Below the pieces are notes generated by a model that saw only the letters and a program-made list of their open reading frames with translations, did no database searches and was not told the DNA's origin. A stretch of DNA of 64,000 nt, from positions 29,169 to 93,168 of the forward strand of contig JAUWJD010000009.1 of NCBI GenBank assembly GCA_030607875.1, read 5' to 3'. Source of the stretch: Chloroflexota bacterium (GTDB taxonomy: Bacteria > Chloroflexota > Anaerolineae > UBA2200). The stretch's first letter is position 1. Every line of letters begins with the position of its first letter. This document shows positions 5,519-42,978 of the stretch, piece after piece. The translations under genes and the position numbers were made by a program.

Positions 5519-5521
5519 GGA

Positions 5522-5911: not shown

Positions 5912-6061
5912 GATGTTTCCTCCTGTTTTGTGGACGTGGTATTAAATTATATCATGGGATGGCTATGGATGCAATCTGGAGTCTACCTTTTCGGCGTCGC
6001 AAGTTGCCATTTGCGATATTCGATGATATAATGTCAACACAACGACGTAGTGAGGAGACCT

Positions 6062-17315: not shown

Positions 17316-17344
17316 AGCCAGGCAGGTATATGGGAGAGAACTCG

Positions 17345-20300
17345 ATGAAGCTACTGGCCGGCTCCATGAAAAGAATGCCAGCGCAGCAGGCACCTCCACG
17401 CCCGCAGACCCCGTCACGATGCGGATGGAAATGGCACGTTGCCCGCCGTTTCTGCCTCTTTGTGCTGCTACTGCTGCTACTGCCCAGATGGGCGCAGGCT
17501 ATGGACGGCCCACAGCTCACACTGGCCAAGTCAGTCTCTCCGACTACGGTGCCCGCTGGCGGACGCGTGACATATACCATCACGCTGACCAACTCGGGTA
17601 ACGCAGCAGCGGAGGACGTCACTATCCGCGATACCCTGCCCGATGGCTTCTCCTATCGCCACGGGACCAGCAGGGTCACGGTGAACGGTGTCACCGTTTC
17701 CACAGCCGATCCTTCCGTCTCTGGCCATACGCTGACTTGGTCGGGTTTCCACCTGCCCTCTGGCCGGAGTGACAGCTTCTACGGCATCCACACCTTTGTG
17801 CAACGCCACACCGAACCCGGCTACCTTGACTACCAACTGAATCGTTCCACGGAACTGATGGGCAGCGGTGCCTACGTGACGCAGTTGTTCGACTGGATCG
17901 ATACGAGCTGGCCCGGACCACCGAACTGGATGCGCGATTTCGTTAGCAGAGCCTACGACCGCTGGCTCACCCCAGTAGTCCGCTTGGCGGCTGGGCGTGG
18001 CACATACTGGATCAAGCCCAAGCCAGACGGGGACGGCAGCTATACCACTTGGGCGCAAGCGTTCAAACGTGTGGTGGATGGCCTGCCCAGACGTGATGGC
18101 CATTGGCTCTACGTCCAGATTTGGAACGAGCCCAATCTGAACGAGGAGTGGGAAGGGGAGGCCAATCCCGCCGAATATGGACGCTTCCTGGTGGAGACTG
18201 CGGCTGCGATTCGCTCCATCGGTGACCCACACATTGTCATCCTCAACGGGCCATTGTCCCCGGGTGGTGAGTACTACTACCTGAACTATCTTGAGGACAT
18301 GCTGAGCACCGTGCCAGCCTCGCTATGGGCTTTTGATATCTGGGCCAGCCATCCTTATCCCAATAACCATCCTCCAGAATACAACATCCACGACGGCACG
18401 GCGAACTACCAAGATGCCACGATAGACGTTTATCAGCGCGAGCTCGAGGTGCTCGCACGCTACGGACGCAGCGGGCTCAAGGTGCTGCTTACCGAGACAG
18501 GCTACGCTCTGTATCAGGCCGATTTCATCTTTGAGGGATACCCGGCAATCAACGAGGCCATCCGTGCCGACTATATCCGGCGTGCTTTTCGTGACCACTG
18601 GAGCCAGTGGCCGGAGGTGATCGGCGTCTGTCCGTACGAACTGGTGGATCCCGATGGACAGTGGTGGGTATGGGATTGGCTATTGAATGACGGGCGCAGC
18701 CACCAGCAATACGACGCTGTCAAGGCCATGGACAAATCGTACTCGCCTGTGAGCAGCGTGCTGCAGATCACCTTCCAGGCTACGGCAGCGACCAGTGCTC
18801 GCATCCACTACAATGATGTCTCCGCCAGTGCCGCCAATGCCCCTGCGCAGTCCATCACACAGGCAGCGCCGGTGACGGTGTATGTGCCCACACCCACGCG
18901 CACGCTGACACCAACACAAACGCACACGCCGACTGCGTCGCCTACGGCGACATCTACGACAACGCAGACGTCGACGCCCATGGCTACTGCCACGCACACT
19001 CCTGAACAGACCTGGACACCCACCTTGACCCTCACAGTGACAGAGACCTTGACGCCAAGCGAAACCCTGACGATTACGCCTACTCCCACGGACATGGAGA
19101 CAGCGACCGTCACGGCAACACCGAGCCCGACGGCGACACAGACACTGACTTTGACTCCAACACCCTCTGCGACGCCCAGCCCGACCGCGTCGCCCACGGC
19201 GACGCCTACTGCGACCATTACACCCTCACCAACTGCCGTCTGTACCGACTTGATCGTCAACGGTGGCTTTGAGACTACGGAAGCCTGGCAGATCCCAGAT
19301 ACACCGCACCCGGCTGGCCATACCACCACGCGTGCTCACACCGGCCAGCGCTCCATGCGGCTGGGCATCGAGTCAGGGAGCAATATCCGCAGCTACTCCA
19401 CCGCCTGGCAGGCGATCCACGTGCCTGCGGATGCGTCGGATCCCGTCTTGACCTTCTGGTACTATCCAGTCTCCGCTGACACGGAAGGTGATGACCAGCG
19501 CGCCCTGATCTTGAACGAGCAAGGCGATGTCGAGGAATGGGTCTTCCTCTTGCGGTCCAATGCACAGAGCTGGACGTACAAAGAGTTCTCGCTTGCCGAC
19601 TACAGGGGCCAGACCATCCGCGTGTATTTCGGTGCCTTCAACGATGGATTGAATGGTGTGACAGCGATGTACGTGGATGACGTGGCCGTGCTGGTCTGCG
19701 GTGTGATGCCTACACCGACGGTCAGCCCCACTGCATCAGTGACATTGACACCCACGCCAACAGCCACTCCTACTGGCTCGGCCACACCGCTGCCTACTCC
19801 GACTGCCAGCCCCACCGCATCGGCGACGCCATCCTCAACACCAACAGCCACGCCCTCCCATACGGCAACGAGCACCGCAACCCAGACAGATACCATCACA
19901 CCCTCGCCCACAACCACGGAGATGCTCCCCCCAACCAACACATCAACCGCCACCGCCGAGCCGTCATTGACTGCAACGGTGACGTCAAGCCCTACGCCGG
20001 GATGCACTGACTTGATTGTTGATGGCGGCTTTGAGTGGGATGATGAAGCCTGGCTTATCCCGGACACGGCGTACCCGGCTGGCTATACGACAAATCAGGC
20101 GCACAGCGACCAGCGCTCTATGCGGCTGGGCATCGAATCAGGTGACAACATCTACAGCTACTCCACAGTCCGGCAGACGGTACATGTGCCCGCGAATGCG
20201 CAAGAACCAATCCTGAGATTCTGGTACTATCACGTCTCTGGCGATACCGAGCACGATTTACAATATGTGCTCATTGAGAACGAGAACGGCGACTCGGAGT

Positions 20301-21520
20301 GGGTGCTCCGTGTGCGCTCAGATGCACAGTCCTGGACACTTACGGAGCACTATCTTGCCGCTGGCTTCAAAGGTAAGGACGTCACCATCTATTTCGGCGT
20401 GCTCAACGACGGAGGCGGCGGCATCACAGCGATGTATGTGGATGATGTTTCGCTGCCCATCTGTGGCGTACAGCCAACGCCATTGCCTACCAGCAGCGTG
20501 CCCCGCAGGCAGGCGCTCTTGCCCCTGATTCTCCGAGAGTTCGAGGGGCAGAATCAGCAGGACCGCGCTTCGCCGGCAGGATTGACCGCAGCGATCAGCT
20601 CTGCGGCAAGCGTGCGCACGCTTTGGATGCCCGCCGAGCCGGACGTGTCCCCTGACTTTATCCAGGGTTTGGTGCTCAACCCGACAAACAATCTGCTCTA
20701 CGCCGCAGCGGGCAAAGGCATCTGGGTTCTCAATGTCCAGACGGGCCAAGCCGTAGCGCATATCCCTTTGGAGGCCACAGCGCGTGGCTTGGCCGTGGAT
20801 GTAGCTACCAACCGCATCTATGCCGCTCTCTGGGAGGCAAATGCTTTGGCCGTGATTGACGGTAGTCGAAATGTCTTGTGGAAGATTGTACCAGGCATCC
20901 CGGGAGCGAGCGGCGTGGCTGTAGGCAGAGATCACATCTACGTCACCGCTACCCACAGCGATGAACTGATTGTTGTCGACGGGCAGAACTGTGCTATAAT
21001 TGGGCGCATCGCTGTCGGCGATGCCCCATACGCAGTAGTGTGTGATCGTGGTCGACAGAGAGTCTACGTGGGCAATGCGGGTAGCGATACCGTGTCTATC
21101 GTAGATGGGCGCAAAGGTCTGCAGTTGAGTACTGTGAAGCTCGGTGGTCTGGGACATCCACATGGCTTGGCCCATGATCCGATCCGTGACCGTCTCTACG
21201 TGACCTACGCCCTTTCGCCCAGGTACCGGGCCATCGCAGCCATAGACGCTTCCTCGGGACAGGTGCTGTCCCGCTTGTTGGGCAACGAGAAACGCTCCCT
21301 CTTTGGAGCTTACGCCATTGCGGTTGACCCATTGCGAGGCAGGGTATACACGACAACGGTTGATGAGCTTCTAGTGCTGGCCGGCAGGACACTACGTGTG
21401 GTGGAAAGCGCGCCTGGGCCTGGGCCCACCTACGCTTTCGGTTTGTTTGCCAGTCCACTGGAGGAGCGCCTTTACGTAGCTGACGCACAGCACCGTAGGC
21501 TGGCTGTTGTCAGCAGGTGA
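17345..21520 (+). CDS. secreted multidomain protein: DUF11 + GH clan-A catalytic domain + 2 x CBM_4_9-like modules + YVTN beta-propeller
   Basis: The protein has, in order, a signal peptide (FCLFVLLLLLLPRWAQA), a DUF11 repeat (VTYTITLTNSGNAAAEDVTIRDTLP), and a TIM-barrel GH domain with IWNEPNL (acid/base) and LLTETGY (nucleophile). Two Thr/Pro-rich linkers and two roughly 150-aa Cys-bounded repeats starting CTDLIV(N/D)GGFE follow, and the C-terminus carries YVTN-type 40-residue propeller repeats. The start is chosen at MKLLAG, but upstream GTG or ATG starts are possible. Confidence 0.75.
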   Translation: MKLLAGSMKRMPAQQAPPRPQTPSRCGWKWHVARRFCLFVLLLLLLPRWAQAMDGPQLTLAKSVSPTTVPAGGRVTYTITLTNSGNAAAEDVTIRDTLPDGFSYRHGTSRVTVNGVTVSTADPSVSGHTLTWSGFHLPSGRSDSFYGIHTFVQRHTEPGYLDYQLNRSTELMGSGAYVTQLFDWIDTSWPGPPNWMRDFVSRAYDRWLTPVVRLAAGRGTYWIKPKPDGDGSYTTWAQAFKRVVDGLPRRDGHWLYVQIWNEPNLNEEWEGEANPAEYGRFLVETAAAIRSIGDPHIVILNGPLSPGGEYYYLNYLEDMLSTVPASLWAFDIWASHPYPNNHPPEYNIHDGTANYQDATIDVYQRELEVLARYGRSGLKVLLTETGYALYQADFIFEGYPAINEAIRADYIRRAFRDHWSQWPEVIGVCPYELVDPDGQWWVWDWLLNDGRSHQQYDAVKAMDKSYSPVSSVLQITFQATAATSARIHYNDVSASAANAPAQSITQAAPVTVYVPTPTRTLTPTQTHTPTASPTATSTTTQTSTPMATATHTPEQTWTPTLTLTVTETLTPSETLTITPTPTDMETATVTATPSPTATQTLTLTPTPSATPSPTASPTATPTATITPSPTAVCTDLIVNGGFETTEAWQIPDTPHPAGHTTTRAHTGQRSMRLGIESGSNIRSYSTAWQAIHVPADASDPVLTFWYYPVSADTEGDDQRALILNEQGDVEEWVFLLRSNAQSWTYKEFSLADYRGQTIRVYFGAFNDGLNGVTAMYVDDVAVLVCGVMPTPTVSPTASVTLTPTPTATPTGSATPLPTPTASPTASATPSSTPTATPSHTATSTATQTDTITPSPTTTEMLPPTNTSTATAEPSLTATVTSSPTPGCTDLIVDGGFEWDDEAWLIPDTAYPAGYTTNQAHSDQRSMRLGIESGDNIYSYSTVRQTVHVPANAQEPILRFWYYHVSGDTEHDLQYVLIENENGDSEWVLRVRSDAQSWTLTEHYLAAGFKGKDVTIYFGVLNDGGGGITAMYVDDVSLPICGVQPTPLPTSSVPRRQALLPLILREFEGQNQQDRASPAGLTAAISSAASVRTLWMPAEPDVSPDFIQGLVLNPTNNLLYAAAGKGIWVLNVQTGQAVAHIPLEATARGLAVDVATNRIYAALWEANALAVIDGSRNVLWKIVPGIPGASGVAVGRDHIYVTATHSDELIVVDGQNCAIIGRIAVGDAPYAVVCDRGRQRVYVGNAGSDTVSIVDGRKGLQLSTVKLGGLGHPHGLAHDPIRDRLYVTYALSPRYRAIAAIDASSGQVLSRLLGNEKRSLFGAYAIAVDPLRGRVYTTTVDELLVLAGRTLRVVESAPGPGPTYAFGLFASPLEERLYVADAQHRRLAVVSR
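18886..19236 (+). repeat. low-complexity Thr/Pro-rich linker-coding repeats (linker 1)
   Basis: Iterated ACN-CCN codons encode PT/TP/TAT strings. The spurious long antisense ORFs here are artefacts of this repetition. Confidence 0.6.
19705..19995 (+). repeat. low-complexity Thr/Pro-rich linker-coding repeats (linker 2)
   Basis: Same kind of repeat as linker 1, lying between the two CBM-like modules. Confidence 0.6.
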
Positions 21521-24759: not shown

Positions 24760-25830
24760 GTGCAAATCAAAGAGTTTCTGAAGAAGCTTTCTGAAGCCAG
24801 CGGTGTGTCCGGATACGAGGCCAGCGTGCGCGAACTGGTGCGCGAAGAGTTCTCCCAGTACGCGGACGAGATACAGGTGGACACCATGGGCAGCCTGATC
24901 GCACTGAAGCGCGGCGAGGCAAAGGACGATCTCCCACGTCGCAGCATCATGCTTGCAGGACACATGGATGAAATCGGCCTGCTGGTCACCAAGTTGGAGA
25001 AAGGCTTTTTGCGTTTTGCCACTGTGGGTGGCTTCGACCTGCGGGTTCTGCTGGCACAGCAAGTCGTGGTTCATGGCCGCCGAGATTTGCCAGGCATTAT
25101 CGCCACGCGGCCCCCACATGTGCTCACACGAGAGGACCGAGAGCAGGTCGTGCCCCTGGACAAGCTGTTCATAGACGTGGGGCTGCCAGAAGATGAATTG
25201 AGCCAGTGGGTACGCGTTGGAGACGTGATCACCATACGCCGCCAGTTCACCGAATTGGCAGGCGACCTGGTGTCCGGCAAGGCCTTCGATGACCGCGCAG
25301 CGGTAGCGTGCATTGGCCATTGCCTGCAGCACCTCACCACACTGAAACACGCCTGGGACGTGTACGCCGTTGCCACAGTGCAGGAGGAGGTCGGGCTGAA
25401 AGGGGCCTTAACCAGTACCTTCGGCATCGCGCCCGATATCGGTATTGCCATAGACGTCGGCCATGGTAACATGCTGGGTGTCTCTGAAATGGATACGGTG
25501 AAAGTTGGGGGTGGGCCAGCCATTGGCTTCGGGCCCAACATCCACCCGCTAATGTACTCCCGCCTGGTGGAAACCGCCAAGTCCTATGAGATTGCTCACC
25601 AGACCGATCCCATCCCAGGCAGGAGCGGCACAGATGCCTGGGCTATGCAGGTGACGCGCGAGGGCATCCCCACCGCCCTGATCTCCATACCGCTGCGCTA
25701 CATGCACACCAGCGTCGAGACGCTTTCACTGAAGGATCTGGAGCGCATTGGTCGGCTGCTGGCCCTTTTCATCGCTAATCTGGAAGAGGCGTTTGCTGAA
25801 GAACTTGGCCTGAAGAAAGCCCACACATAG
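24760..25830 (+). CDS. M42 family (TET/FrvX-type) aminopeptidase, paralogue 1
   Basis: Begins at a GTG preceded by a GAGGAGG RBS. Carries the HMDEIG motif and the overall M42 layout. Confidence 0.85.
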   Translation: MQIKEFLKKLSEASGVSGYEASVRELVREEFSQYADEIQVDTMGSLIALKRGEAKDDLPRRSIMLAGHMDEIGLLVTKLEKGFLRFATVGGFDLRVLLAQQVVVHGRRDLPGIIATRPPHVLTREDREQVVPLDKLFIDVGLPEDELSQWVRVGDVITIRRQFTELAGDLVSGKAFDDRAAVACIGHCLQHLTTLKHAWDVYAVATVQEEVGLKGALTSTFGIAPDIGIAIDVGHGNMLGVSEMDTVKVGGGPAIGFGPNIHPLMYSRLVETAKSYEIAHQTDPIPGRSGTDAWAMQVTREGIPTALISIPLRYMHTSVETLSLKDLERIGRLLALFIANLEEAFAEELGLKKAHT

Positions 25831-25913
25831 ATACTGTGAGGGATGTGCGAAGCACCCCCGAAGCGAAAGGGACTGAACTGCGTCGCACATCGAGTGAGTG
25901 GAGGAGGAAGCCA

Positions 25914-26948
25914 TTGTTGTTGAAAGAACTCTCTGAAGCATTCGGTGTATCCGGTCACGAAGACGCAGTTCGGCAGTTGATCCTGGATGCAATCAAAGAC
26001 CGGGTGGATGAATACAACGTTGACGCCTTGGGCAATCTGATTGCCTTGAAAAGGGGCACTGGTCCATCACAGCACAAAGTCATGGTTGCTGCGCACATGG
26101 ATGAAGTGGGCCTGATGATCTTGCACATTGAGAAAGAAGGCTCGTTGCGCTTTCACCCCGTTGGCGGCATTGACCCGCGTGTCCTGCTGGCCAAGAAGGT
26201 ACTGATCGGCGATGACAAGGTGCCGGGCGTGATCGGCATGAAACCCATTCACCTGTTGGAGCCCAAGGAACGCCAACGAGTAGTCAAGGACCAAGAGCTG
26301 CACATCGACATCGGTACGTCGAGCAAGGAAGAAACCGAGAAACTGGTCAAAATCGGCGACTATGCTGCCTTCGACATCTCCTTCCGCGAACTGGGCGGCG
26401 AACTGCGCACAGTGAAGGGCAAGGCTTTTGATGACCGCGTCGGCTGCGCTGTGCTGGTCGAGTTGTTGCGCACGAGTTACCCCGTTGACCTCTACGCTGC
26501 CTTCACCGTGCAGGAGGAAGTCGGGCTGCGTGGAGCCCGAGTGGCGGCCTATTCCATTGCACCTGACTTGGCCTTCGCGCTGGAAGGTACGATCTGCGAT
26601 GACCTGCCGAAGAAGCGGGACATCAGCCCCACAACGAAGCTAGGGGCGGGGCCAGCGATCACCATCATGGACCGCTCCGTCATAGCCGACCGTCGTCTGG
26701 TGCAACTGTTGGTCGATACGGCAGAGAAGAATGGCATCCCCTATCAGTTCAAGCAGCCCGGGCTGGGCGGCACAGACGCAGGAGCCATTCACCTCTCGCG
26801 CGAGGGAGTCCCCTCCGTGGTCGTGTCTGTGCCGGCACGTTACATCCACTCGCCAGCCTGCTTGCTGAGTCTCAACGATTTCGATAACACCGTGCGCTTG
26901 ATGCGCGAGAGCCTGGCCAAAGTGAACGAACTGGATCTGAGCCGTTAG
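25914..26948 (+). CDS. M42 family aminopeptidase, paralogue 2
   Basis: A TTG start follows a GGAGGAGGA RBS (the longer ORF from 25836 lacks an RBS). Carries AAHMDEVG and the M42 layout. Confidence 0.8.
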   Translation: MLLKELSEAFGVSGHEDAVRQLILDAIKDRVDEYNVDALGNLIALKRGTGPSQHKVMVAAHMDEVGLMILHIEKEGSLRFHPVGGIDPRVLLAKKVLIGDDKVPGVIGMKPIHLLEPKERQRVVKDQELHIDIGTSSKEETEKLVKIGDYAAFDISFRELGGELRTVKGKAFDDRVGCAVLVELLRTSYPVDLYAAFTVQEEVGLRGARVAAYSIAPDLAFALEGTICDDLPKKRDISPTTKLGAGPAITIMDRSVIADRRLVQLLVDTAEKNGIPYQFKQPGLGGTDAGAIHLSREGVPSVVVSVPARYIHSPACLLSLNDFDNTVRLMRESLAKVNELDLSR

Positions 26949-26955
26949 CCGCAAT

Positions 26956-26986
26956 AGACCCCAAAGGTTTTTGGAACCTTCGGGGT
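26956..26986 (+). terminator. hairpin after M42 paralogue 2, with no U-tract
   Basis: GACCCCAAAGGTT / GAACCTTCGGGGTC forms a 13-bp stem with one mismatch around a TTTG loop. Confidence 0.4.
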
Positions 26987-26994
26987 CTGGAAAG

Positions 26995-27094
26995 CTACAG
27001 AGTACTGCGCCGATCGCCAAACTTGGATAGCCGTTTGCATGCGGCAATTCGATCAATGAGGTTTAGCCACCTTCGGTGCACAAAGCAGTAGAAC
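26995..27094 (+). promoter_or_regulatory. conserved ~100-nt upstream element, copy 1
   Basis: The 5' block CTACAGAGTACTGCGCCGA..CAAACT, an internal GTTTAGC and the 3' block AAGCAGTAGAAC are shared with the copies at 43815 and 53534. The element ends 14 nt before the start of M42 paralogue 3. Confidence 0.4.
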
Positions 27095-27108
27095 AGGAGG
27101 CATTTCTA

Positions 27109-28116
27109 GTGAAAGAACTCATCAAGGAACTGACCGAAGCGTTCGGCCCATCGGGCAATGAAGACGCCGTACGTGAAATCATCAAGAAACACGTTGCTGA
27201 GCATGTAGACGAGGTACGGGTAGACCCGCTGGGCAACTTGATCACTCTGAAGAAAGGCAAGCCCAAGAGCGGTGTGCAGTCACGCAAGATCATGCTCGCT
27301 GCACACATGGACGAAATCGGCGTGATCATCAGCTACGTGGACGACAAGGGCTTCCTGCGCTTCACTAGAGTTGGTGGAGTGTTTCCGCTTACTTTGTTAG
27401 GAAGCCGGGTGGTCTTTGCCGATGGCAGCACCGGGGTCATCGGACGCGAGAAGCCAGAGAAACGCGACGAGTTTCCGCGCATGGATAAGATGTACATCGA
27501 CGTGGGGGCTGTAGACAAAGAGCACCTGAATAGAAAGGTTGGCGACGTGGCCGCTTTCGTCCGGCCGTTTGTTGACCTGGGACAGCGTCTGACGGCCAAA
27601 GCCTTCGATGACCGCATCGGCTGCGCGATACTGCTGCAGACCGCGTTGGAGCTGAAGACAACACCACACGATGTCTACTTCGTTTTCACTGTGCAGGAAG
27701 AGGTAGGGCTGCGAGGCGCGCTGACCTCCGCTTTTGGCGTGGAGCCAGATGTGGCCATCGCTGTGGACGTCACGCTGACCGGCGATACGCCGGAAGCACA
27801 CCCCATGGCCGTCTCCCTCGGTGCCGGGCCGGCCATCAAGGTCAAAGACCGCGGCATGCTCGCCCACTCCGGCGTGAAGAATTGGATGGCCAATACCGCT
27901 GAGCGTCTGGGGGTGCCCTATCAGTTCGAGGTTCTGGAGGGAGGCACCACCGATGCCATGGCCATCCAGACATCGCGTGCTGGCGTCGCTGCAGGTGTGC
28001 TATCCATCCCCTGCCGCTATGTGCACAGCCCATCGGAGATGGTGGACTATGACGATGTGCAAAACGCGGTGAAACTGCTCGTCGGACTGTTGAGTGGGCC
28101 AGTCGACCTAGGCTGA
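27109..28116 (+). CDS. M42 family aminopeptidase, paralogue 3
   Basis: A GTG start follows an AGGAGG RBS. Carries AAHMDEIG and the M42 layout. Confidence 0.8.
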   Translation: MKELIKELTEAFGPSGNEDAVREIIKKHVAEHVDEVRVDPLGNLITLKKGKPKSGVQSRKIMLAAHMDEIGVIISYVDDKGFLRFTRVGGVFPLTLLGSRVVFADGSTGVIGREKPEKRDEFPRMDKMYIDVGAVDKEHLNRKVGDVAAFVRPFVDLGQRLTAKAFDDRIGCAILLQTALELKTTPHDVYFVFTVQEEVGLRGALTSAFGVEPDVAIAVDVTLTGDTPEAHPMAVSLGAGPAIKVKDRGMLAHSGVKNWMANTAERLGVPYQFEVLEGGTTDAMAIQTSRAGVAAGVLSIPCRYVHSPSEMVDYDDVQNAVKLLVGLLSGPVDLG

Positions 28117-28286: not shown

Positions 28287-31200
28287 CTAATCCTGCGTCT
28301 CGTCGGACATAAGGGTCTGATAGGCTTCTATCAGGGCCTTTTTGTACTCCTCAAGAGACGGTAGTCCGGCTTCCCTCCGCCTCTTGTCAACATTCGCTTC
28401 ATCTTCGATGGGCAGAGGCACGAACTCGCCATCCTTCCTCTCTAATTGTGTCCCGTATACTTGCTTTTCCCCCTCGTTAATGAGCACCCGGTCCGTCAAA
28501 TAGGCAACGTTTACCATGCGTGCTTCGAATGTCTCTGCCGCTTGTTTGAGGAGTTCCAAGCATTGTTTCTGGAAGGCAAGATCCGAGTTTGCGTGCTGCA
28601 CCAGGAGCCATGCCGCATCAGCTCCTGCCCCGCCTACCACACTGTAGCCAGGCCAACCATACTCCTGAACGATTTCTCGCATTCGGGCGGTGTTCCTGGC
28701 GTTCACCTCCTCCCACTTTATCTCAAGTGTCGGATCTGTCCCATTGGCCCGCTTCAACTGTTCTATGGCCTCCTGATCCTCGTCGACCATCCTGAGCAGT
28801 TCCTGCTGCAGTTCGCTGTTGAACTTTACTGCCAGAACAGTTTGAGCCTCCTCCGTTCCACCTTCAGGCGTGAGCGGAGTGGGCTTGAAGCTGAGCGTAG
28901 GCTCGGCATGTACTGGGGGCTGCACCTCGCGCTTCTCCGAAGAAAGACCGCTCATCAGCCGAGCTGCCACGTCAGCAACCCTGCCCGCCCCAGCCAGGTG
29001 CTCAGGTATGATTGCCTCAATGCTGTCTGTGGGGAGATGAGTGGTCTCCAGAACATCGGACGCGCAGAGGACGATGATAGGCATAGGCCGATCGGAATAA
29101 CTTTCCGAAAAACTGTACTGATGGGGCGAATGACTCTGCAACGTGATCTTGACGCCCAGTTTTCGCGCCGCCTTGCGCAACTGCGGCAGCACGCCATAGC
29201 TGCCCCACTCCTGCAGACCGAGTGCTGCATCAGGGCCATAAGCGATGCTGTCCAGATGGATCACGGCGTAGAGGCTGTACCTGGGCAGGAGCCCGCTATC
29301 CAGGAGATGCTGTATCCCCGAATCCAAGCCACCCTGCTCGACGTTCCCCCAGGCAGCGAACACAACGGTATGTTCTGGTTGATAGCCCTGTTCTTTCCAG
29401 ACACGGGCAATCTCCAGCAGAGCAGCTACGCCCGAGGCGTTGTCTACGGCGCCGGGATAGAGCCTCCCTTCCAGGTCACGACCCAGCCCGTCATAGTGCG
29501 CGCCAATGACCACCACCTGCTCAACTTTGCTCTTCCCCGGGATGGCTCCCAGGACGTGGATGCCCTTTGTTTCCGCCTGACGCTGCAGCGGGTAACTCAT
29601 GCGCACGCGCCCCGTCGTCTCCCAGACTTTGCCCTGGCCCTCGGGCAAACCCTCTACTTCTTCCTGCAGCTCCTTCAAGTGGAGGCCCAAATGCCCTAGC
29701 AACCGCTCAGCAGCCTCGTCGCTGATCTTGAAACGAGCAAAGGGGTCTGCTCCCATGAAGGAGAAACCTCCGCGAGGCAGGCTCCACCGTCCGAAGTAAT
29801 GGGGGATAGCATGTACAACGATCAGCGTGCCCACGCGTGGAGGCGGTTCGGGCCGCGGATCCTCCTGCAGGGCAGAGTAAAAGTCCAAGCCGAGGACAAC
29901 TTCTGCCTTCCCTGGCTCTCCCATTTGCAGCAGACGTATCTCAAATGGTCCCGTGCTCATGGGCTGATGCTGGCCCACCACCGTCAGGCGGCCCACGACG
30001 GGAAAAGGCGGCAGGCCAGCGCTGACATCCACAACGAAATCCTCCAGATAGGCAAATTCTTCCAGGACGTTGCCTTCTTGATCCTTCAAGATCAATTGCG
30101 GAATCTCTGCGAAATCCAGGCGTTCGAACTCGAACTGCTGGAAGTACGTCTCCCCGTCCCCTGCTGGTTCCAGCCCTGCCGCAGCGAACTGCTTGGCGAT
30201 GTACTCGGCAGCACGACGTGCACCTTCTGTCCCTGCTCGCCGTCCCTGCAATTCTTCACTCGTGAGATAGTGCACGTCTACCAGGGCACGTTCGACGTCA
30301 AAGGCGCGGGCCTGCCGAGCGTAAGCCACAGCAGGGCCAGTGTTATCCAGAATAAGCCACACGACTACAGCCACAGCAGCGGCCGCCATCAACAGGCGCT
30401 TGAAAGGCAGGCTGGCCAGGTTCACGCCACTGCGCTCCACCAGTTCCTGCAAACCCATGCCCAGCAAGTTAAAGCCCAGGACGGCGACGAAGAAAGCCGC
30501 CGCAGGATAGAGGGTCATCCAGGGATAGCTGCGAGCATAGCGCCAGGAGTTGGAGAGCATCGCCCCCCATTCAGGCACGGAGAAATAGACCACGGGCCGG
30601 TCGTACACATCCAGCGTACTGATGCCGCCCCCGATGAATATGCCCACAAACCCCAGTTCACCCAGGGTGAGCAAAACGCTGCCCATCTCCAGGGTGGCCA
30701 GGGCCAGCAGGGAGGGGAAAACGTTGGGCAGCACGTGCCGTGTGATGATCTCTGGAGTGGAGAGCCCTACTGCCCGTGCGCCCTCGATAAAGGGGCGTTG
30801 GCGGATGGTGGCAAACTCGCCACGTACAGTCTGGGTGACCTCAGCCCAGCCCAGAAAACACAGGGCAACCACAAAAGTGGATAGCCCCTTCTGGATGCCG
30901 AAAGCCAGGATCAGCAGCACACCCAGGATCAGGGAGGGGAAAGCTGCCTCAGCCCCGGCCACGCTCATAATCGCCCGATCCACAGCTCGTCCGTGGTACC
31001 AGCCAGACACGGCCCCCAGCGCGAAGCCGACGATCACTCGCACGGCCATCACTGCCGCAGCGATGGACAGGGTCTGGCCCGCACCACAGATCAGCAGGCT
31101 GAGCAAATCCCGCCCCTGCTGATCCGTCCCCAGCAGAAAGTGCGCTGACGGTGGGAACGGGGGTGTGCGTGTCACGCCATCCACCTCCAGGAACCAGGTT

Positions 31201-31331
31201 TGTTCTGTGGGGTCATGCGGCGCGAAACGCGGGCCGAAGGCAGCGGCGACGATCAGGGCCAGCACAATGAGCCCTCCGCTGATCAAGGGACCACTGGTCA
31301 GGCCATGCCACAGACGAGCCCGGCGGCGCAT
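28287..31331 (-). CDS. fusion protein: OppC/DppC-type ABC permease + extra TM helix + M28 Zn-aminopeptidase + uncharacterised C-terminal domain
   Basis: The N-terminal roughly 330 aa form a binding-protein-dependent permease (six hydrophobic segments and a conserved cytoplasmic loop). A seventh helix (LLMAAAAVAVVVWLIL) follows, then an M28 domain (VVIGAHYDGLG, AVDNASGVAALLEIA), then an unassigned tail of about 170 aa. The start is chosen at MRRRARL, overlapping the end of the OppB-like gene, because the 100 codons upstream overlap that gene. Confidence 0.7.
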   Translation of the reverse strand: MRRRARLWHGLTSGPLISGGLIVLALIVAAAFGPRFAPHDPTEQTWFLEVDGVTRTPPFPPSAHFLLGTDQQGRDLLSLLICGAGQTLSIAAAVMAVRVIVGFALGAVSGWYHGRAVDRAIMSVAGAEAAFPSLILGVLLILAFGIQKGLSTFVVALCFLGWAEVTQTVRGEFATIRQRPFIEGARAVGLSTPEIITRHVLPNVFPSLLALATLEMGSVLLTLGELGFVGIFIGGGISTLDVYDRPVVYFSVPEWGAMLSNSWRYARSYPWMTLYPAAAFFVAVLGFNLLGMGLQELVERSGVNLASLPFKRLLMAAAAVAVVVWLILDNTGPAVAYARQARAFDVERALVDVHYLTSEELQGRRAGTEGARRAAEYIAKQFAAAGLEPAGDGETYFQQFEFERLDFAEIPQLILKDQEGNVLEEFAYLEDFVVDVSAGLPPFPVVGRLTVVGQHQPMSTGPFEIRLLQMGEPGKAEVVLGLDFYSALQEDPRPEPPPRVGTLIVVHAIPHYFGRWSLPRGGFSFMGADPFARFKISDEAAERLLGHLGLHLKELQEEVEGLPEGQGKVWETTGRVRMSYPLQRQAETKGIHVLGAIPGKSKVEQVVVIGAHYDGLGRDLEGRLYPGAVDNASGVAALLEIARVWKEQGYQPEHTVVFAAWGNVEQGGLDSGIQHLLDSGLLPRYSLYAVIHLDSIAYGPDAALGLQEWGSYGVLPQLRKAARKLGVKITLQSHSPHQYSFSESYSDRPMPIIVLCASDVLETTHLPTDSIEAIIPEHLAGAGRVADVAARLMSGLSSEKREVQPPVHAEPTLSFKPTPLTPEGGTEEAQTVLAVKFNSELQQELLRMVDEDQEAIEQLKRANGTDPTLEIKWEEVNARNTARMREIVQEYGWPGYSVVGGAGADAAWLLVQHANSDLAFQKQCLELLKQAAETFEARMVNVAYLTDRVLINEGEKQVYGTQLERKDGEFVPLPIEDEANVDKRRREAGLPSLEEYKKALIEAYQTLMSDETQD

Positions 31332-31348
31332 CTCCAGCGTCCTCTGCG

Positions 31349-32296
31349 TCACGCTCCACCTCCCGGCACTGCAGTTCGCAGCCGTGGATCCGCCCAGCGG
31401 TAGCCCAGTTCCAAGAGGGCATTGATGACCAGAAAGGTAAAGCCCAGGCTTAGTACCAGGCCCGTGGTAGTGTTGATGTCGTAGCTGCGGATGGCATCCA
31501 AGAGGGCAGTGCCTACGCCAGGCCATCCGACGAACACCTCCGCTATGGGCAATGCAGCCAGGCTGTAGCGCATCGAGAGGCTGAGCGCGGTGAGTATCGA
31601 AGGAGCGGCGTTGCGGAAAGCGTGACGCCATACTACCCAGCGCCTGGAAAGGCCCTTGGCATAGGCAGTACGGATATAGTCCTGATCGAGGACATCGGCC
31701 AGGGCTAGATAGGTCATGCGCGCCATGCGAGCGATGGACGGTGCCGCCAAGACCAGCGCAGGCATGACCAGATGCTCATCCCAGCCAAATCCCCCTACCG
31801 GCAGGAGCCTCGTCCCGGTAGCACGGTAGAAACGGACAAGCATCACCTGCAACAGCAAAGCCAGGAAGAAGGTAGGCGCCGAGATGCCCACCAGGGTGGA
31901 GGCGATGATGCCCACGGAGAGGCGCGAGTGGCGTAGCAAAGCGGCCAGGGTGCCCAGGGGTATGCCAATAAGCGCTGTCAGCAGCAGCGCGACAGCCAGC
32001 AGACCCATCGAACGTGGATAATACCCCCGCAGCAACTGGGCGACCGGCCTGGTCGCCATCCGTCGACTCCGCCGCGTCCAAAGCGCGCTGTTTCCCAGGT
32101 CACCGCGAATGGCGTGGCTCAAGTATTCCCCTGTGCCAATCGCACTCTGGCGCAGTATCACAGAGGCAGGCGCATAGCCCCTCGCTCTGGCCGCTCCCAG
32201 AGTCAAATGGCACAGGAAAATGATCAACACAAGGGTGAAAACAGCGGCAATCAGATGTCGGAACGGCAAACGCAAGGTGCATTCACTCCGAAGCAA
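31349..32296 (-). CDS. OppB/DppB-type ABC transporter permease
   Basis: The ORF is 315 aa with the BPD_transp_1 layout. It starts 17 nt after the anti-sigma stop. Confidence 0.8.
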   Translation of the reverse strand: MLRSECTLRLPFRHLIAAVFTLVLIIFLCHLTLGAARARGYAPASVILRQSAIGTGEYLSHAIRGDLGNSALWTRRSRRMATRPVAQLLRGYYPRSMGLLAVALLLTALIGIPLGTLAALLRHSRLSVGIIASTLVGISAPTFFLALLLQVMLVRFYRATGTRLLPVGGFGWDEHLVMPALVLAAPSIARMARMTYLALADVLDQDYIRTAYAKGLSRRWVVWRHAFRNAAPSILTALSLSMRYSLAALPIAEVFVGWPGVGTALLDAIRSYDINTTTGLVLSLGFTFLVINALLELGYRWADPRLRTAVPGGGA

Positions 32297-32313
32297 GCAA
32301 ATGGCAGTCGGAC

Positions 32314-33000
32314 CTATTCCTGGCCATGATAGATAGTTGGCGCACTGCGTTTTTCCTCGACTGGGGCGAAGGAAAAGCTGTGCTCGCTGCTTCGCCCCCC
32401 CCTAGTCCGAAAGACCAAGTGAACCCGTACAGTGTCCGGGGGATACAACGTGCGCACCGTACTTGATGGGTCCATGACCATGAATGACTCAATAACCATG
32501 ACTCGCCCCTGTACGCTGATGCGAGCCTCCTGCGGGGGAGTCAAGGTAACGACATATCTTGTATCAGGGGTGATCCCCCGGTCCAGGAAGATGACGATGG
32601 GAGCATCGGCCGGCACATGTTCTGCGCCATCAACGGGGAAGGTACGCAACACGCGAGGTGGTTCCTGAGCATACACCTTGGGCCGTTGGGAGGCAAAGAA
32701 GACAAGACCCAGCACGATGAGGAAACTAGCAGCGAACAGGGCGTACCGTCCGAAACCCACGGGCGGCAACTTGATCCACTCGCTCAGGCGACGGATTCGA
32801 CCCCGTTGTGTCGAGACTCGCTCGTGCTGCAGGCCCAGGCGGGCGTACGTCCGCTTGATCACCCTCTCCACCAGATTCCCCTCAGAAGGCTCCAGCACGG
32901 CTTCGACGTAGAAAGGTGGGAGATCCTCCGCTTCGATGTCGAAATAGCTCCGCAGTTCCCTAGAGAAACGCCGCTCTTCGTCACAGAGATCCTTGCACAT
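32314..33000 (-). CDS. membrane anti-sigma factor (single TM, extracytoplasmic C-terminal domain)
   Basis: Starts at MCKDLCDEE with a GAGGAGCGGG RBS and overlaps the sigma gene by about 20 nt. Has one TM segment (YALFAASFLIVLGLVFFA). The assignment rests on position and architecture. Confidence 0.5.
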   Translation of the reverse strand: MCKDLCDEERRFSRELRSYFDIEAEDLPPFYVEAVLEPSEGNLVERVIKRTYARLGLQHERVSTQRGRIRRLSEWIKLPPVGFGRYALFAASFLIVLGLVFFASQRPKVYAQEPPRVLRTFPVDGAEHVPADAPIVIFLDRGITPDTRYVVTLTPPQEARISVQGRVMVIESFMVMDPSSTVRTLYPPDTVRVHLVFRTRGGRSSEHSFSFAPVEEKRSAPTIYHGQE

Positions 33001-33568
33001 TTTCCCGCTCCTCGTGCCCAATAGCCGTCATCTTTTCACGCAATGCCCGCCGGGCCCGCCACAGACGGTTCTCTACAGCCCGCTGCGTCAGCCCTACGGC
33101 CTCGGCAATCTCTCTAATGGGCTGCTCAGAAAAGTAGCGGCGGTAAACGATCGCTCTATCCAGCTCCGAAAGCTCGGCCAGGGCGCGCCGCAAACCTTCC
33201 TTGCGTTCTAGCCAGTCCTCAGCCATCTCTGCTGCCTGGTCAGGGAGAGCAGCCACATCCTTCTCTGCGCGCGTCTCAAGTTCCCGGCCTCGCTTGCGCC
33301 TTTGATCCAAAGCCATGTACTTGGCCCGCATGCGTATCCATTTGGCCAGTGTCCCTCGCTGTGCATCAAACTCATCGAGCTCACGCCAGACGGCAACGAA
33401 CACGTCGCTCACGATCTCCTCTGCATCCTCAGCGCTTCCAAGACCACCCAGGATGTGCGAGACCAGAGCATATAGCTCGGCGGCGTATCGCGCGACCAAG
33501 ACCTCCAAGCAGCGAGAGTCCCGCTGGCGTATGCCTCTGACGAGCTGGTGTTCGGGGTCCTTTGCCAT
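32981..33568 (-). CDS. ECF-type RNA polymerase sigma factor (sigma-70 family)
   Basis: The ORF is 195 aa with region 2 (DAEEIVSDVFVAVW) and region 4 (IREIAEAVGLTQRAVENRLWRARRALR). Confidence 0.8.
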   Translation of the reverse strand: MAKDPEHQLVRGIRQRDSRCLEVLVARYAAELYALVSHILGGLGSAEDAEEIVSDVFVAVWRELDEFDAQRGTLAKWIRMRAKYMALDQRRKRGRELETRAEKDVAALPDQAAEMAEDWLERKEGLRRALAELSELDRAIVYRRYFSEQPIREIAEAVGLTQRAVENRLWRARRALREKMTAIGHEERENVQGSL

Positions 33569-33694
33569 GATGAATGGCTCCTCTATAGAATACTACGTCT
33601 GGGGGTTGAGCAATCTCTCATTATTGTATCCTACGCCACGATGACCCCAATTCCTGCTGGTGTCCACCGTACTGGCAGAGCCCGATAATCAACT

Positions 33695-34009
33695 ATGCTG
33701 CCGAAGCGGGAGTCATTGAAGGAAGGAGAAAGTATCGATTCGACGGAGAAGCCCTTCAAGGAACTGACCAAAGCCCCAGGCGTGCCTAGCTATGAAAGTG
33801 AGGTTCGGGCGGTCATCCGCCGCCACCTAGAAGCGGTAGCGGCGATTGAGCGCGACCGGTTGGGCAGCATCACTGGCGTAAAGCGCGGCTCAGCGGATTG
33901 GCCGCAAGTAATGCTCGCCGGGCACATGGATGAGGTCGGCTTTGTGGTCAGCCTGATCACCGATGAGGGTTTTATCCGCATAATCGCTTCGGTCAGCTCG
34001 ATAGGCTGA
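33695..34009 (+). pseudogene. M42 aminopeptidase 5' remnant
   Basis: About 290 bp are roughly 90% identical to the leader plus first ~95 codons of the M42 gene at 41908. The ATG is mutated to ATC, and the frame runs into an unrelated sequence and a stop. Confidence 0.6.
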
Positions 34010-34747
34010 CCGCGCCCATAGAGTAACCACTGTCGGGGCTGATGGTCTGCCCGGTAATGAAGCCTGCCTCTCTTGACGCGAGGTGGAGCACCAACGAGGC
34101 CACCTCTTCGGCTTTCCCCAGCCGCCTCATAGGCGTGGCTTCCTTGATCTTCTCCGGCCTCTCGGCTCTGAGCCCCTCCAGAGACCTTGTCTCCACAAAG
34201 CCGGGTGCCACGACGTTGACCGTGATGCCCAGAGGGGCAACCTCCTGGGCTAGGGCACGGGTCAGGCCGATGACGCCGGCCTTGCTGCCGAGTAGGCCGC
34301 CGCACCCGCACAGCCAGCGAGGCCGCAGATGGAAGCGATGTTGACGATGCGCCCCCTGTGCTGGCGGAGCATCACTGGTAGCACGGCCCGCAGGCAGTTG
34401 AAGGTGCCAGTGAGATAGAGCGCCAGGGTGCTATGCCACTCCTCATCGCTTAACATCTGCAAGGGGTGGGGGGTCACTTTCGCTCCAGCGCTGTTGACCA
34501 GGATGTCGAGGCGGCCGAAGTGATCGACCAAGGCTTTCACCATGGCCTCCACCTCCGCCCTCTGGGTGATATCGGCTGGCAGGGCCAGGCCCTGTGTTGC
34601 AGCAGCCACTCTCTCGGCTGCAGTGGGATCCAGGTCGTTGATCCCCACGATGATCCCCTCCTCCGCAAAGAGGCGGGCCACAGCCTCGCCAAGGCTGCCG
34701 CCCGCCCCGCTAATGAGCGCCACCTGACCCTGCAGATCGTATCTCAC
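33993..34747 (-). pseudogene. SDR-family oxidoreductase (FabG-like) interrupted by a frameshift
   Basis: The N-terminal 160 aa (GTG start, VALISGAGGSLG, NSAG) read in one frame to AYSAA. The C-terminal part (GITVNVVAPGFVETR...ITGQTI) is in another frame. A single missing base in an AAA run near 34282 restores ...AAKAGVIGLT... Confidence 0.6.
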
Positions 34748-40974: not shown

Positions 40975-41847
40975 TTCTTTGCCTCCTGCAAAAAGTAGTA
41001 ATTTGACCTTCATGGCCGATGAGGTGTGGCTTTTAGCCATTCTTTTTGTTGCTTAATACCCCCTTTCTAGTATGAAATGTCTCGACTGAGCTCGACAACG
41101 TCTCAGCTACGGCAAACTGGACGATAGTCCCTGGTAAGGTCTGGAGATGAAGCTAGAGGGGGTGTTACCGTCCCCTCTGGCCAGGCAAAAAAACCTTTTC
41201 AGCCCTGCTCCTTCGCCTTGGGGAACTGGGCCAATACCAAATCGAAGAAGTAGGCACCGGCGATAGCACCTAGGATGGGCACACTACAGTAGTGCCCCAG
41301 AGCTCGTTGGGCGGCCCCAGTTCACGGGCGGCAGCTCCTTGGTTTACCCACGCCGCAATGCAACCAGCGGCTTTCTACGAATGTTTTCCTCTATGGATCA
41401 CCCACTCCCGTGCTGCAAGAGCCGATCCTCTTGGAAGCAGATTCCTACGAGGAGATCGCGTTATGCAGCCTGGGCCCATCAAAAGAAAAGACCTTCCAGC
41501 ACTCGAAGTGAAGAAAGGTCTACTCTTGTCCGCCGCAACCCTCCGTTGGGTAGCACAACTTTGAATATCGGCTAGAAAATGGGAACTGTTGCATCTTCCG
41601 TTATTTACATTCTAGCACAAAACTCTGATTTGTCAAGTACAGACTCGGTCCCAAAGTGTGTTGGTGGGTTTTCGTGGCAGGATTGACCACTGCTGGTAGT
41701 TGTGATGGGCGTTACTTGGGTACTATCCCTGGTACCACTCAACCGGTGCGTTGTCGATCAACACAATCTGGAACCGAGTCCAAGTACAAAGCTTCTGCAA
41801 TAGTTTTGGGCTTTCGCCACACTTCGGAAGAAGGAGCAGCTCTGCAT

Positions 41848-41876
41848 TTGATCTTCACTCCTTTTGCTCATATAAT
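41848..41876 (+). promoter_or_regulatory. candidate sigma-70 promoter (TTGATC-17-TATAAT)
   Basis: Near-consensus hexamers lie about 30 nt upstream of the AGGAAGGAG RBS and ATG of M42 paralogue 4. Confidence 0.45.
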
Positions 41877-41907
41877 TGCACCAGCGCTTATTAAGGAAGG
41901 AGAAGGC

Positions 41908-42978
41908 ATGGATTCAACGGAGAAGCTCTTCAAGGAACTGACCAAAGCCCCAGGCGTGCCTGGCTATGAAAGTGAGGTTCGGGCGGTCATCCGCCGCCAT
42001 CTAGAAGCGATAGCCACGATTGAGCGCGACCGGTTGGGCAGCATCATCGGCGTGAAGCGCGGCTCAGAGGATTCGCCGCGAGTGATGCTCGCCGCGCACA
42101 TGGACGAAGTCGGCTTTATGGTCAGCTTGATCACCGACGAGGGATTCATCCGCTTCGTCCCCTTGGGCGGCTGGTGGGACCAGGTCATGCTAGCCCAGCG
42201 TGTGGTGATCAAGACGTCTGCTGGCGACGTATTCGGGCTGCTGGGGGCCAAGCCCCCGCACCTGCTGGAACGGGAAGAGGCCCAGAAGTTGGTGAAGAAA
42301 AAGGACATGTACGTAGATATCGGAGCCACCAGCGCCGACGAAGTGAAGGCGTGCGGGGTGCGGCTGGGTGATCCGATCATTCCCATCTGTCCCTTTACCA
42401 GCTTGAGCCCCGGCCAGACCTACATGGCCAAAGCCTGGGACGATCGCCTGGGGTGCGCGCTCTTCATCCAGGCCATCGAGCGCCTGAAGGGCCAGGCACA
42501 CCCCAATGCGGTCTACGCCGTAGGCACCGTGCAGGAAGAAGTGGGTTGTCGGGGGGCCAAGACCAGCGTGCATAACATCAACCCAGACGTGGCGATCATT
42601 CTGGAAGTGGACATCGCTGGCGACGTCCCCGGCATCAAGCCTGAGGAATCAGCGATAAAGCTCGGCAAGGGGCCTAGCTTGTTGCTGTACGATGCGCGCA
42701 TGATTCCCAACCTTCGGCTGCGCGATTTGGTGATTTCCATAGCCGAGGAGAACGACATCCCGTTGCAGTTCTCGACCATGCGCGGCGGCGCGACAGATGG
42801 ATCAATGATCCACCTGCACAACGAGGGTGTCCCCACTGTGGTGCTCGGCGTCCCCACGCGGCACATTCACAGCCATGCCGGCATCCTGCACCGTGCCGAC
42901 TACGACCACGCGCTCGACCTGCTGGTTAAGCTGATCATGCGCCTGGACGAAGCTACAGTGCGACAGCTCACCGAGTAG
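41908..42978 (+). CDS. M42 family aminopeptidase, paralogue 4
   Basis: The ORF is 356 aa, begins MDSTEKLFKELTKAPGVPGYESEV and carries AAHMDEVG. Confidence 0.85.
   Translation: MDSTEKLFKELTKAPGVPGYESEVRAVIRRHLEAIATIERDRLGSIIGVKRGSEDSPRVMLAAHMDEVGFMVSLITDEGFIRFVPLGGWWDQVMLAQRVVIKTSAGDVFGLLGAKPPHLLEREEAQKLVKKKDMYVDIGATSADEVKACGVRLGDPIIPICPFTSLSPGQTYMAKAWDDRLGCALFIQAIERLKGQAHPNAVYAVGTVQEEVGCRGAKTSVHNINPDVAIILEVDIAGDVPGIKPEESAIKLGKGPSLLLYDARMIPNLRLRDLVISIAEENDIPLQFSTMRGGATDGSMIHLHNEGVPTVVLGVPTRHIHSHAGILHRADYDHALDLLVKLIMRLDEATVRQLTE

Follow-up and report, generated by a model that had tools for sequence, protein, structure and literature searches.

Why should a pore subunit of an Opp-type importer carry a peptidase-fold domain, and why should its gene stand behind those of a sigma factor and a single-pass membrane protein? 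The question is raised by a locus in a stretch of 64,000 nucleotides from contig JAUWJD010000009.1 of a Chloroflexota bacterium (hereafter the window, meaning this whole stretch), where four consecutive open reading frames (ORFs), all in the same direction on the minus strand, fill positions 28287-33568. They encode an extracytoplasmic function (ECF) sigma factor, a putative single-pass anti-sigma factor, an OppB/DppB-type ATP-binding cassette (ABC) permease and a large protein that begins as an OppC/DppC-type permease, crosses the membrane a seventh time and continues into an M28 aminopeptidase-like ectodomain. In the present study we confirm that the permease::M28 fusion is a real, large and uncharacterised family, found almost only in Chloroflexota-labelled genomes, and we find that most of its members have lost catalytic residues of the peptidase. 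We favour, with a probability a little above one half (about 0.55), a non-catalytic or weakly catalytic ectodomain that would serve for capture or docking on an Opp-type translocator, with ATPases supplied in trans and expression driven by the ECF sigma factor. The PepT permease family and the M28 fold family are already known; what is new here is the permease::M28 architecture, both widespread and uncharacterised. An earlier reading of this DNA from its letters alone (the sequence-only reading) had known of no described Opp system built in this way, and the literature that we searched likewise yielded no published description of a permease::M28 fusion.

The fusion gene (28287-31352, minus strand) encodes, in this order, an OppC core, a seventh transmembrane helix (TM7), a PA-type M28 ectodomain, a linker and a DUF6624 domain, 1021 residues in all. 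Its preferred start is a GTG at 31352, which overlaps the oppB stop codon by 4 nucleotides (GTGA) and has GGAGGTGGA ahead of it, and the same 1021-residue version is the protein called in public assemblies. The sequence-only reading had given the protein 1014 residues, counted from an ATG at 31331; the ORF is real even if that start is not the preferred one, and the numbering of the 1014-residue version is followed here for all parts of the protein. Residues 1-301 (30429-31331, minus strand) form the six-transmembrane permease core of OppC/DppC type, including the EAA loop FIEGARAVGLSTPEIITRHVLPN, and the large protein matches BPD_transp_1 of Pfam with E = 2e-17 (63.7 bits against a cutoff of 26.4). 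An end-to-end alignment links a profile of the family to DppC of E. coli (8z1v_B, chain residues 23-293 of 300, E = 2.5e-42), and OppC is matched as well (8z21_B, E = 2.4e-35). The EAA coupling loop, FIEGARAVGL...RHVLPN in the window protein, is conserved across the family, its residues R186, G189, R198, H199, P202 and N203 being invariant or nearly so in 57 homologues.

TM7 comprises residues 310-330 (30342-30404, minus strand), with LLMAAAAVAVVVWLIL as its core, and was located both by a hydropathy scan and as a helix over the same residues in an AlphaFold2 model. This model, based on a 57-sequence alignment (mean predicted local distance difference test score, pLDDT, 75; predicted template-modelling score, pTM, 0.68), further shows a confident permease core and a mostly confident globular part at residues 333-795. 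Six-transmembrane cores of the DppC/OppC type have both their N and C ends in the cytoplasm. In the 57 homologues the 18 residues before TM7 contain on average 4.7 Lys and Arg (net charge +3.8), as against 1.1 after it (net charge -0.2). Because of this positive-inside signal, and because the fused variants described below fit the same orientation, free-standing DUF6624 proteins have signal peptides and the nearest M28 relatives are secreted, the M28 ectodomain and the domains downstream of it lie almost certainly outside the membrane. The earlier expectation that an odd number of transmembrane helices would put the peptidase domain outside is thus upheld, with seven helices in place.

The ectodomain occupies residues 333-795 (28947-30335, minus strand) and gives a Peptidase_M28 match with E = 1.7e-21 (77.3 bits against a cutoff of 21.3). 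Inserted in it is a beta-rich domain at residues 397-590 (29562-30143, minus strand) that resembles the PA or apical domain. When the AlphaFold2 model was compared with the PDB by Foldseek, the top match was the Aneurinibacillus AM-1 aminopeptidase (2ek8, E = 3e-18, TM-score 0.68 on the target), followed by P. aeruginosa PaAP, B. subtilis BSAP/YwaD, the transferrin receptor and GCPII; the alignments extend over 470-530 columns and include the inserted beta domain as well as the protease-like core. The family profile also matches the transferrin receptor (E = 1.5e-17, profile positions 365-751 to receptor residues 9-398) and nicalin (E = 8.6e-11). The label "PA-type" rests on this structural and profile evidence, since the Pfam PA model does not match the insert: a segment of 220 residues (about 378-597) gave no Pfam match even at E = 10. 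Of the three domains that the sequence-only reading expected profile models to find, BPD_transp_1 and Peptidase_M28 were matched and Pfam PA was not; its central observation, an OppC/DppC permease, a seventh helix and an M28 domain in one protein, is borne out by these two matches, and the sequence details that it quoted (LLMAAAAVAVVVWLIL, VVIGAHYDGLG and AVDNASGVAALLEIA) are all present. Throughout the family the residues of the structural core and a juxtamembrane GPAxxYA motif right after TM7 are invariant or nearly so.

Does this ectodomain still hydrolyse peptides? An exopeptidase physically tethered to the importer pore was the first proposal for this protein; as an active zinc enzyme that would trim extracellular peptides immediately ahead of their import, it is the rival explanation that survives best, although we regard it as unlikely. 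The M28 fold indeed lies outside and is fused to a permease, as was proposed, but the catalytic centre tells against it. A search of homologue databases returned at least 198 relatives, of which 120 were listed, and counts out of 120 given here refer to the listed ones. These were aligned by MAFFT with the Vibrio aminopeptidase (AAP), using a sequence of it that a PDB alignment confirmed for residues 78-183. In AAP the metal ligands are H97, D117, E152, D179 and H256, and E151 and E152 form the adjacent Glu pair of catalytic base and ligand; mutagenesis of AAP reportedly showed that both glutamates are required for efficient catalysis.

The window protein retains the ligands H612 (29496-29498), D630 (29442-29444), D694 (29250-29252) and H765 (29037-29039, all on the minus strand), and their persistence in the window lineage together with one Glu speaks for activity. 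The Glu-Glu pair of M28 enzymes is replaced by V664-E665-Q666 (29334-29342, minus strand), WGNVEQ(GG) standing where GAEE would be expected, so that the motif reads FAAWGNVEQGGLDSG as compared with FAAWGAEELGLVGS in the homologue P0006; the single Glu is conserved in P0001-P0004. How it is aligned decides which function is missing. By MAFFT and by two of three BLAST alignments V664 corresponds to E151 and E665 to E152, whereas one BLAST alignment and a phmmer/HMMER alignment introduce a gap and pair E665 with E151 and Q666 with E152. The latter two place the single Glu at the position of the catalytic base, which favours an active enzyme; nevertheless one Glu of the adjacent pair is missing in every alignment, with either V664 in place of the base or Q666 in place of the ligand.

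The homologues point in the same two directions. The full set of H97, D117, E151, E152, D179 and H256 is intact in P0006 and P0081 (2 of 120), which counts in favour of an active peptidase, and peptidase genes are frequent neighbours of the family. In the MAFFT alignment the window protein, P0002-P0004, P0016 and P0043 keep five ligands with V or G at the catalytic Glu and thus lack the base, and in the remainder, about 110 of the 120, one to five ligands are lost with the fold kept, Q-D-D-E-G-R-R being the commonest pattern. Furthermore, P0003 has gained a second, canonical M28 domain, which would be redundant were its first one active. Because the fold and the juxtamembrane motif are conserved and the catalytic centre is not, selection has preserved the fold and its link to the permease, but not hydrolysis, and it is here that our reading departs most from the sequence-only one.

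The extent of the family is best seen from its domain composition. Nearly all of the 120 listed homologues carry PF00528 and PF04389 together, under database names that read just "ABC transporter permease subunit". In a scan of GTDB with one genome per species, 478 matches encode a relative; each of the best 80 of these 478, from which taxonomy and coverage were taken, covers approximately the first 700-800 residues of the query, that is, permease and M28, and all 80 have Chloroflexota labels (mostly Anaerolineae or Anaerolineales) except two Thermotogae metagenome-assembled genomes (MAGs) and one Zixiibacteriota. An OppB-type partner is fused or lies immediately upstream in every family locus. 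Four size classes are found: OppC-M28 of about 820 residues; OppB-OppC-M28 of about 1200 residues, with 13 hydrophobic (transmembrane) helices; the same with a TPR-like N-terminus, about 1330 residues; and a class of about 1450 residues (P0009 and P0010, for example; L006 8001-12320, L007, L026 and L077 among the loci) with an N-terminal degenerate ABC_tran-like domain. All these variants are compatible with an N-in, C-out topology. The N-terminus of the third class was considered as a fused anti-sigma domain and rejected as such, being TPR-like, and the fourth class was rejected as a self-sufficient transporter, for P0009 and P0010, in which the domain is detectable, lack the Walker A and signature (LSGGQ) motifs. 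Two paralogues occur in the MAG CAYZGO01, a sigma-linked OppC-M28 (L009, 84% identical to the window protein) and a 1445-residue fused type (L077, 39%); by analogy the window organism may have a second family copy outside the window.

If the fusion protein belongs to a transporter, where do the remaining components come from? The window ORFs that were examined include neither an SBP_bac_5 gene nor a complete ABC ATPase gene; of ATPases there is just a 3' portion of an OppF-type gene (ABC_tran and oligo_HPY) at 63323-63973 on the minus strand, which runs off the end of the window. The earlier statement that the operon lacks both a substrate-binding protein (SBP) and an ATPase gene, a distant OppF-like gene being the only ATPase, therefore stands for these ORFs. 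The OppF-type gene probably belongs to a canonical opp operon, from which ATPases could be provided in trans. For 87 family loci the ORFs nearby were clustered and representatives annotated. In about a dozen loci a canonical opp operon (an OppF-type ATPase with oligo_HPY, SBP_bac_5, OppB and OppC) is followed on the same strand by a lipoprotein of about 590 residues, in most cases, and then by OppB-OppC-M28; L029 has, all on one strand, the order OppF-type ATPase, SBP_bac_5, OppB, OppC, a 602-residue protein and OppB-OppC-M28. SBP_bac_5 genes lie near relatives in 16 of the 87 loci, and ATPase-like neighbours are otherwise rare (8 of 87). Stand-alone family genes also occur, as in L008.

Other neighbours recur. 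A PD40 beta-propeller protein (about 385 residues) follows OppB and OppC-M28 in 11 loci (L004, L038, L055, L087, L080 and others), and in most of these it is succeeded by a giant protein of 1600-2050 residues; the one that was scanned, in L004 (10503-16580), contains two M28 domains and Peptidase_MA_2. The degenerate-ATPase-fused form is preceded by MacB/FtsX and membrane-fusion adaptor genes. At the window locus three tandem M42 aminopeptidase genes (24760-28116, plus strand) converge on the 3' end of the operon, and the same trio is present in L002 and L009; enzymes of the M42 family are typically cytoplasmic, of TET type. One more M42 gene, the fourth, is found at a distance of 13 kb (41656-42978, plus strand). 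The protein of about 590 residues has no Pfam match and was seen in 13 loci (L029 4998-6806, L028, L062, L074, L051, L060 and others), mostly between canonical oppC and the OppB-OppC-M28 gene; the one sequence looked at, L044 4823-6595, combines a lipoprotein signal with a beta-rich ectodomain containing h-L-V-W repeats and with several C-terminal transmembrane helices. As a whole, these gene contexts tie the family to the processing and uptake of peptides. With EAA loops that are conserved and relatives that terminate canonical opp operons at their 3' side, they also suggest that this system shares its ATPases, and perhaps OppA, in trans, and such supply would be the simplest explanation for the lack of SBP and ATPase genes here.

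OppB and OppC::M28 represent both membrane subunits of an ABC importer of Opp/Dpp (PepT) type, and TM7 carries the M28 ectodomain and DUF6624 across the cytoplasmic membrane. We propose that above the translocation pore the ectodomain may capture peptide N-termini, or that it may provide a docking site for OppA or secreted peptidases. The OppD/F ATPases, and probably OppA too, would come from another opp operon, and the module would be expressed when an envelope or extracellular cue frees the sigma factor from the anti-sigma factor with its immunoglobulin (Ig)-like domain. Several points weigh against this proposal. The window copy has four or five of the ligands and may retain residual or altered hydrolysis, all the more as two alignments give it a candidate catalytic base. 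The best NCBIfam matches of the permeases, of NikC/Opp2C type, are all below equivalog level and leave the class of substrate (peptide, nickel or other) open. The degenerate ATPase domains of some members hint at a possible departure from classical transport in parts of the family. Finally, no ATPase or OppA gene within the window can be assigned to the system, and for this reason transport itself is something that we infer.

Comparison with known systems shows how far the proposal departs from them. In Opp/Dpp importers specificity resides in the soluble binding protein. The canonical representatives (PepT family, TC 3.A.1.5; E. coli DppBCDF/OppBCDF, 8z1v and 8z21; M. tuberculosis OppABCD, 8j5q) share with the window system the heterodimer of six-transmembrane OppB and OppC BPD_transp_1 subunits, the EAA coupling loops, the GTDxxGRD loop and, in DppC, an end-to-end alignment. 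They differ in that the fusion OppC has TM7, an ectodomain of about 460 residues and, in its last periplasmic loop, about 15 inserted residues peculiar to the family, that the window operon has no SBP or ATPase gene and that its permeases fall below all NCBIfam equivalog cutoffs. Secreted PA-domain M28 aminopeptidases (2ek8; BSAP/YwaD, 6hc6; PaAP, 8ac9) have the same extracytoplasmic protease-like core with an inserted apical domain, but these enzymes are soluble and possess a complete H-D-EE-D-H set, whereas the window domain is anchored to a transporter and has VE(Q), and most of its relatives are without the ligands.

A degenerate M28/PA ectodomain held beside the membrane on one transmembrane helix is also found in the transferrin receptor, in nicastrin of gamma-secretase and in nicalin. 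These are separate polypeptides of eukaryotes, and the membrane partners are unrelated; for nicastrin itself we obtained only a weak Pfam match, on a neighbouring protein. The M28 ectodomains of these three proteins act as receptor or gatekeeper, and a role of this kind for the window ectodomain is suggested only by analogy. A second analogy comes from GlnPQ and OpuA, in which, according to two reports (PMC8025302, PMC11065425), an extracytoplasmic binding domain is covalently tethered to the membrane subunit of a type I importer. In GlnPQ, OpuA and the P2 loop of MalF, as here, a soluble extracytoplasmic domain is joined to an importer membrane subunit. The domains of GlnPQ and OpuA have periplasmic-binding-protein folds and demonstrated substrate delivery, whereas the window domain has the M28/PA fold, and a separate SBP_bac_5 gene is still present beside some relatives. 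A doubtful variant, modelled on the way in which nicastrin and the transferrin receptor serve eukaryotic membrane machines, is that the ectodomain could be a built-in substrate receptor or gate that replaces or complements OppA and binds peptide N-termini at a metal site without hydrolysis; in this lineage its occupancy might even be signalled to the ECF sigma factor through the Ig-domain anti-sigma factor.

The genes upstream of the fusion bear on the regulation of the module. The sigma factor (32981-33568, minus strand; 195 residues) is an ECF (group 4) sigma factor and contains Sigma70_r2 and Sigma70_r4_2, that is, regions 2 and 4 and no region 3 in Pfam, with a TIGR02937 match of 87.4 bits against a cutoff of 42.9. 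Its gene overlaps by 20 nucleotides with that of the putative anti-sigma factor (32314-33000, minus strand; 228 residues), in which a transmembrane helix at approximately residues 86-103 places the N-terminal 85 residues in the cytoplasm. The part outside the membrane gives a weak match to the Ig-like domain Big_5 (E = 1e-4, 23.1 bits, just under the cutoff of 23.6), and no anti-sigma domain model (zf-HC2, RskA and others) in Pfam or NCBIfam matches the protein. The overlap with the sigma gene, the single transmembrane helix and the co-conservation of the two genes nevertheless point to an anti-sigma factor, as had been proposed, although a recognisable anti-sigma domain is lacking. This protein has only five homologues in a database of 5.8 billion proteins, all from the sub-lineage of the window; among the four others, two are listed on contigs equal in length to those that carry P0002 and P0003.

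The OppB/DppB-type permease follows at 31349-32275 (minus strand; 308 residues as called in L001; BPD_transp_1, E = 4.6e-35), its best NCBIfam matches being Opp2B, NikB and OppB, every one below the equivalog cutoff. The oppB ORF stays open up to a TTG at 32296. The gap between the anti-sigma gene and oppB is 38 nucleotides with the called start and 17 with the TTG, and the sequence-only claim of gaps of at most 17 nucleotides holds if oppB begins at the latter. Its overall layout of a four-gene operon (ECF sigma factor, single-helix protein, OppB and large protein) agrees with the ORFs and the domain searches, and the Logan assembly of run SRR12623517 has an identical four-gene arrangement.

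A candidate autoregulated ECF promoter, GAGATT-N14-CGTAG, is located at 33593-33617 (minus strand), 25-49 nucleotides upstream of the sigma ATG. The motif, followed by a GGAGG ribosome-binding site, has been kept at the window locus and in both L002 and L009, in all of which the sigma/anti-sigma pair stands ahead of oppB; it occurs once in the window as compared with 0.11 expected by chance, and no further copy is found there, for example upstream of oppB. A scan for intrinsic terminators detected seven weak sites against 4.1 expected, none of them in the intergenic gaps of the operon. Given the small overlaps and gaps, the conserved upstream block and the lack of a strong internal terminator, co-transcription from an autoregulated ECF promoter is plausible. 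As in other ECF sigma/anti-sigma operons, the sigma factor and a single-pass protein are translationally coupled, the targets lie downstream in the same direction and a two-part motif stands upstream; the differences are the missing anti-sigma domain and the linkage in two family lineages only. An insertion of about 310 nucleotides separates the anti-sigma gene from oppB in L002 (8760-9070) and is not present in the window or L009; it carries an internal direct repeat (GTC[A/G]ACGGATTGCCTTCGGCGAA...) and is possibly a small repeat element by which the operon is split. A 173-residue ORF (33790-34311, minus strand) with no Pfam match, not conserved in L002, adjoins the sigma promoter region on its upstream side.

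How general is this linkage? In L068 a different ECF sigma factor and a 117-residue protein with a single transmembrane helix precede a 35%-identical TPR-OppB-OppC-M28 gene. An ECF sigma factor as family-wide partner was rejected, because phmmer and a four-sequence hidden Markov model (HMM) found one in only L001, L002, L009 and L068 of the 87 loci. The linkage is thus a lineage-specific rewiring, in this sub-lineage and, independently, in L068. The control of a permease-peptidase by an ECF sigma factor, of which the sequence-only reading knew no described case, is plausible for this locus, where the pair is linked, but it is not a trait of the family. Our literature search found no described ECF-controlled opp-type permease operon.

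These observations also bear on an improbable alternative drawn by analogy with transporter-coupled signalling, namely that the module could be a sensor and not a transporter, in which a ligand signal from the ectodomain would pass to the Ig-domain anti-sigma factor and on to the ECF sigma factor. It would accommodate the fact that the fusion shares an operon with a sigma/anti-sigma pair throughout the five members of the sub-lineage, and independently in L068, as well as the lack of a nearby ATPase or SBP gene, the pseudo-enzyme character of the ectodomain and the degenerate ATPase domains of some relatives. It agrees poorly with a sigma linkage restricted to 2 lineages among 87 loci, with the strong conservation of the EAA coupling loops, with the many relatives embedded in canonical opp operons and with the usual situation that genes downstream of an ECF pair are its regulon and not its sensor.

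A module for the uptake of nickel, cobalt or zinc, in which the base-less metal site captures or passes on ions, is very improbable. It would fit the retention of metal ligands without the full catalytic pair in the window lineage and the best NCBIfam matches, NikC/Opp2C for one permease and Opp2B/NikB for the other. However, the OppC part reaches 164 bits with NikC (cutoff 358) and 160 bits with Opp4C (cutoff 350), with no equivalog-level match, and the 164 bits compare with equivalog cutoffs of 300-358. The ligands are, moreover, lost in most family members, and the genes nearby encode peptidases, family-5 SBPs and OppF-type ATPases that contain oligo_HPY.

The C-terminal part of the fusion protein varies even between close relatives. 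A Pro-rich disordered linker at residues 797-839 (28815-28943, minus strand; pLDDT below 50) leads to residues 840-1005 (28317-28814, minus strand). This tail of about 170 residues, left unassigned by the sequence-only reading, is a DUF6624 domain (PF20329, E = 7e-33, 113.9 bits against a cutoff of 27, model positions 2-169 of 173). Its predicted structure, a helical bundle with a small beta-hairpin, is confident (pLDDT 94) but gave no informative fold match. The fused domain shares 49-61% identity with free-standing proteins of 150-300 residues, mostly about 210, whose sources, where named (in few cases), are Blastocatellia, Gemmataceae and Bacillota; these have signal peptides or lipoboxes, whereas the fused copy has no signal peptide. 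In the single paper found to name DUF6624 (PMC13097080) it is reported just to co-occur with graspetide gene clusters. None of the other 119 listed fusion homologues carries DUF6624. The first part of the linker is common to P0002, which ends there, and the closest relatives (81-84% identity) diverge after the shared linker: P0004 has an unrelated tail, and P0003 (81% identical) has at about residues 840-1260, in the position of the window DUF6624, a second PA-type M28 domain whose catalytic residues (HxD, D, EE, D, H) are all intact. The C-terminus of the ectodomain appears to be a scaffold for added extracellular modules, DUF6624 here and a second M28 in P0003.

An assembly or frameshift artefact that joins separate permease, peptidase and DUF6624 genes can practically be dismissed: the DUF6624 junction, taken alone, is unique to this genome, and the NCBI and Logan assemblies may share one sample, but the permease-M28 junction at about 30340, where a false fusion had been feared, recurs in hundreds of independent assemblies with a continuous reading frame and is excluded as an error, the linker ahead of DUF6624 has its homologue in the C-terminal tail of P0002, and the signal peptide of the free DUF6624 forms is missing from the fused one, as expected of a true fusion.

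Two further ORFs of the window lie apart from this system, a 490-residue one (4559-6031, plus strand) with no Pfam match, and one for a 1396-residue protein with DUF11 and MAM-like domains (17330-21520, plus strand) directly upstream of dnaG and rpoD.

The locus represents a large family, almost confined to Chloroflexota genomes, in which a peptidase-fold ectodomain was welded to a pore subunit and its catalytic site then decayed. Taken as we prefer to read it, with the ectodomain serving for capture or docking, it would be a bacterial case of an M28 pseudopeptidase acting as the accessory of a membrane machine, comparable to nicastrin, nicalin and the transferrin receptor. The family offers a defined target for structural and biochemical work, and its series of active, half-degenerate and fully degenerate members could date the loss of catalysis. 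For the Anaerolineae, which are abundant, mostly uncultured and live by scavenging peptides, it suggests an unrecognised organisation of peptide capture at the membrane.

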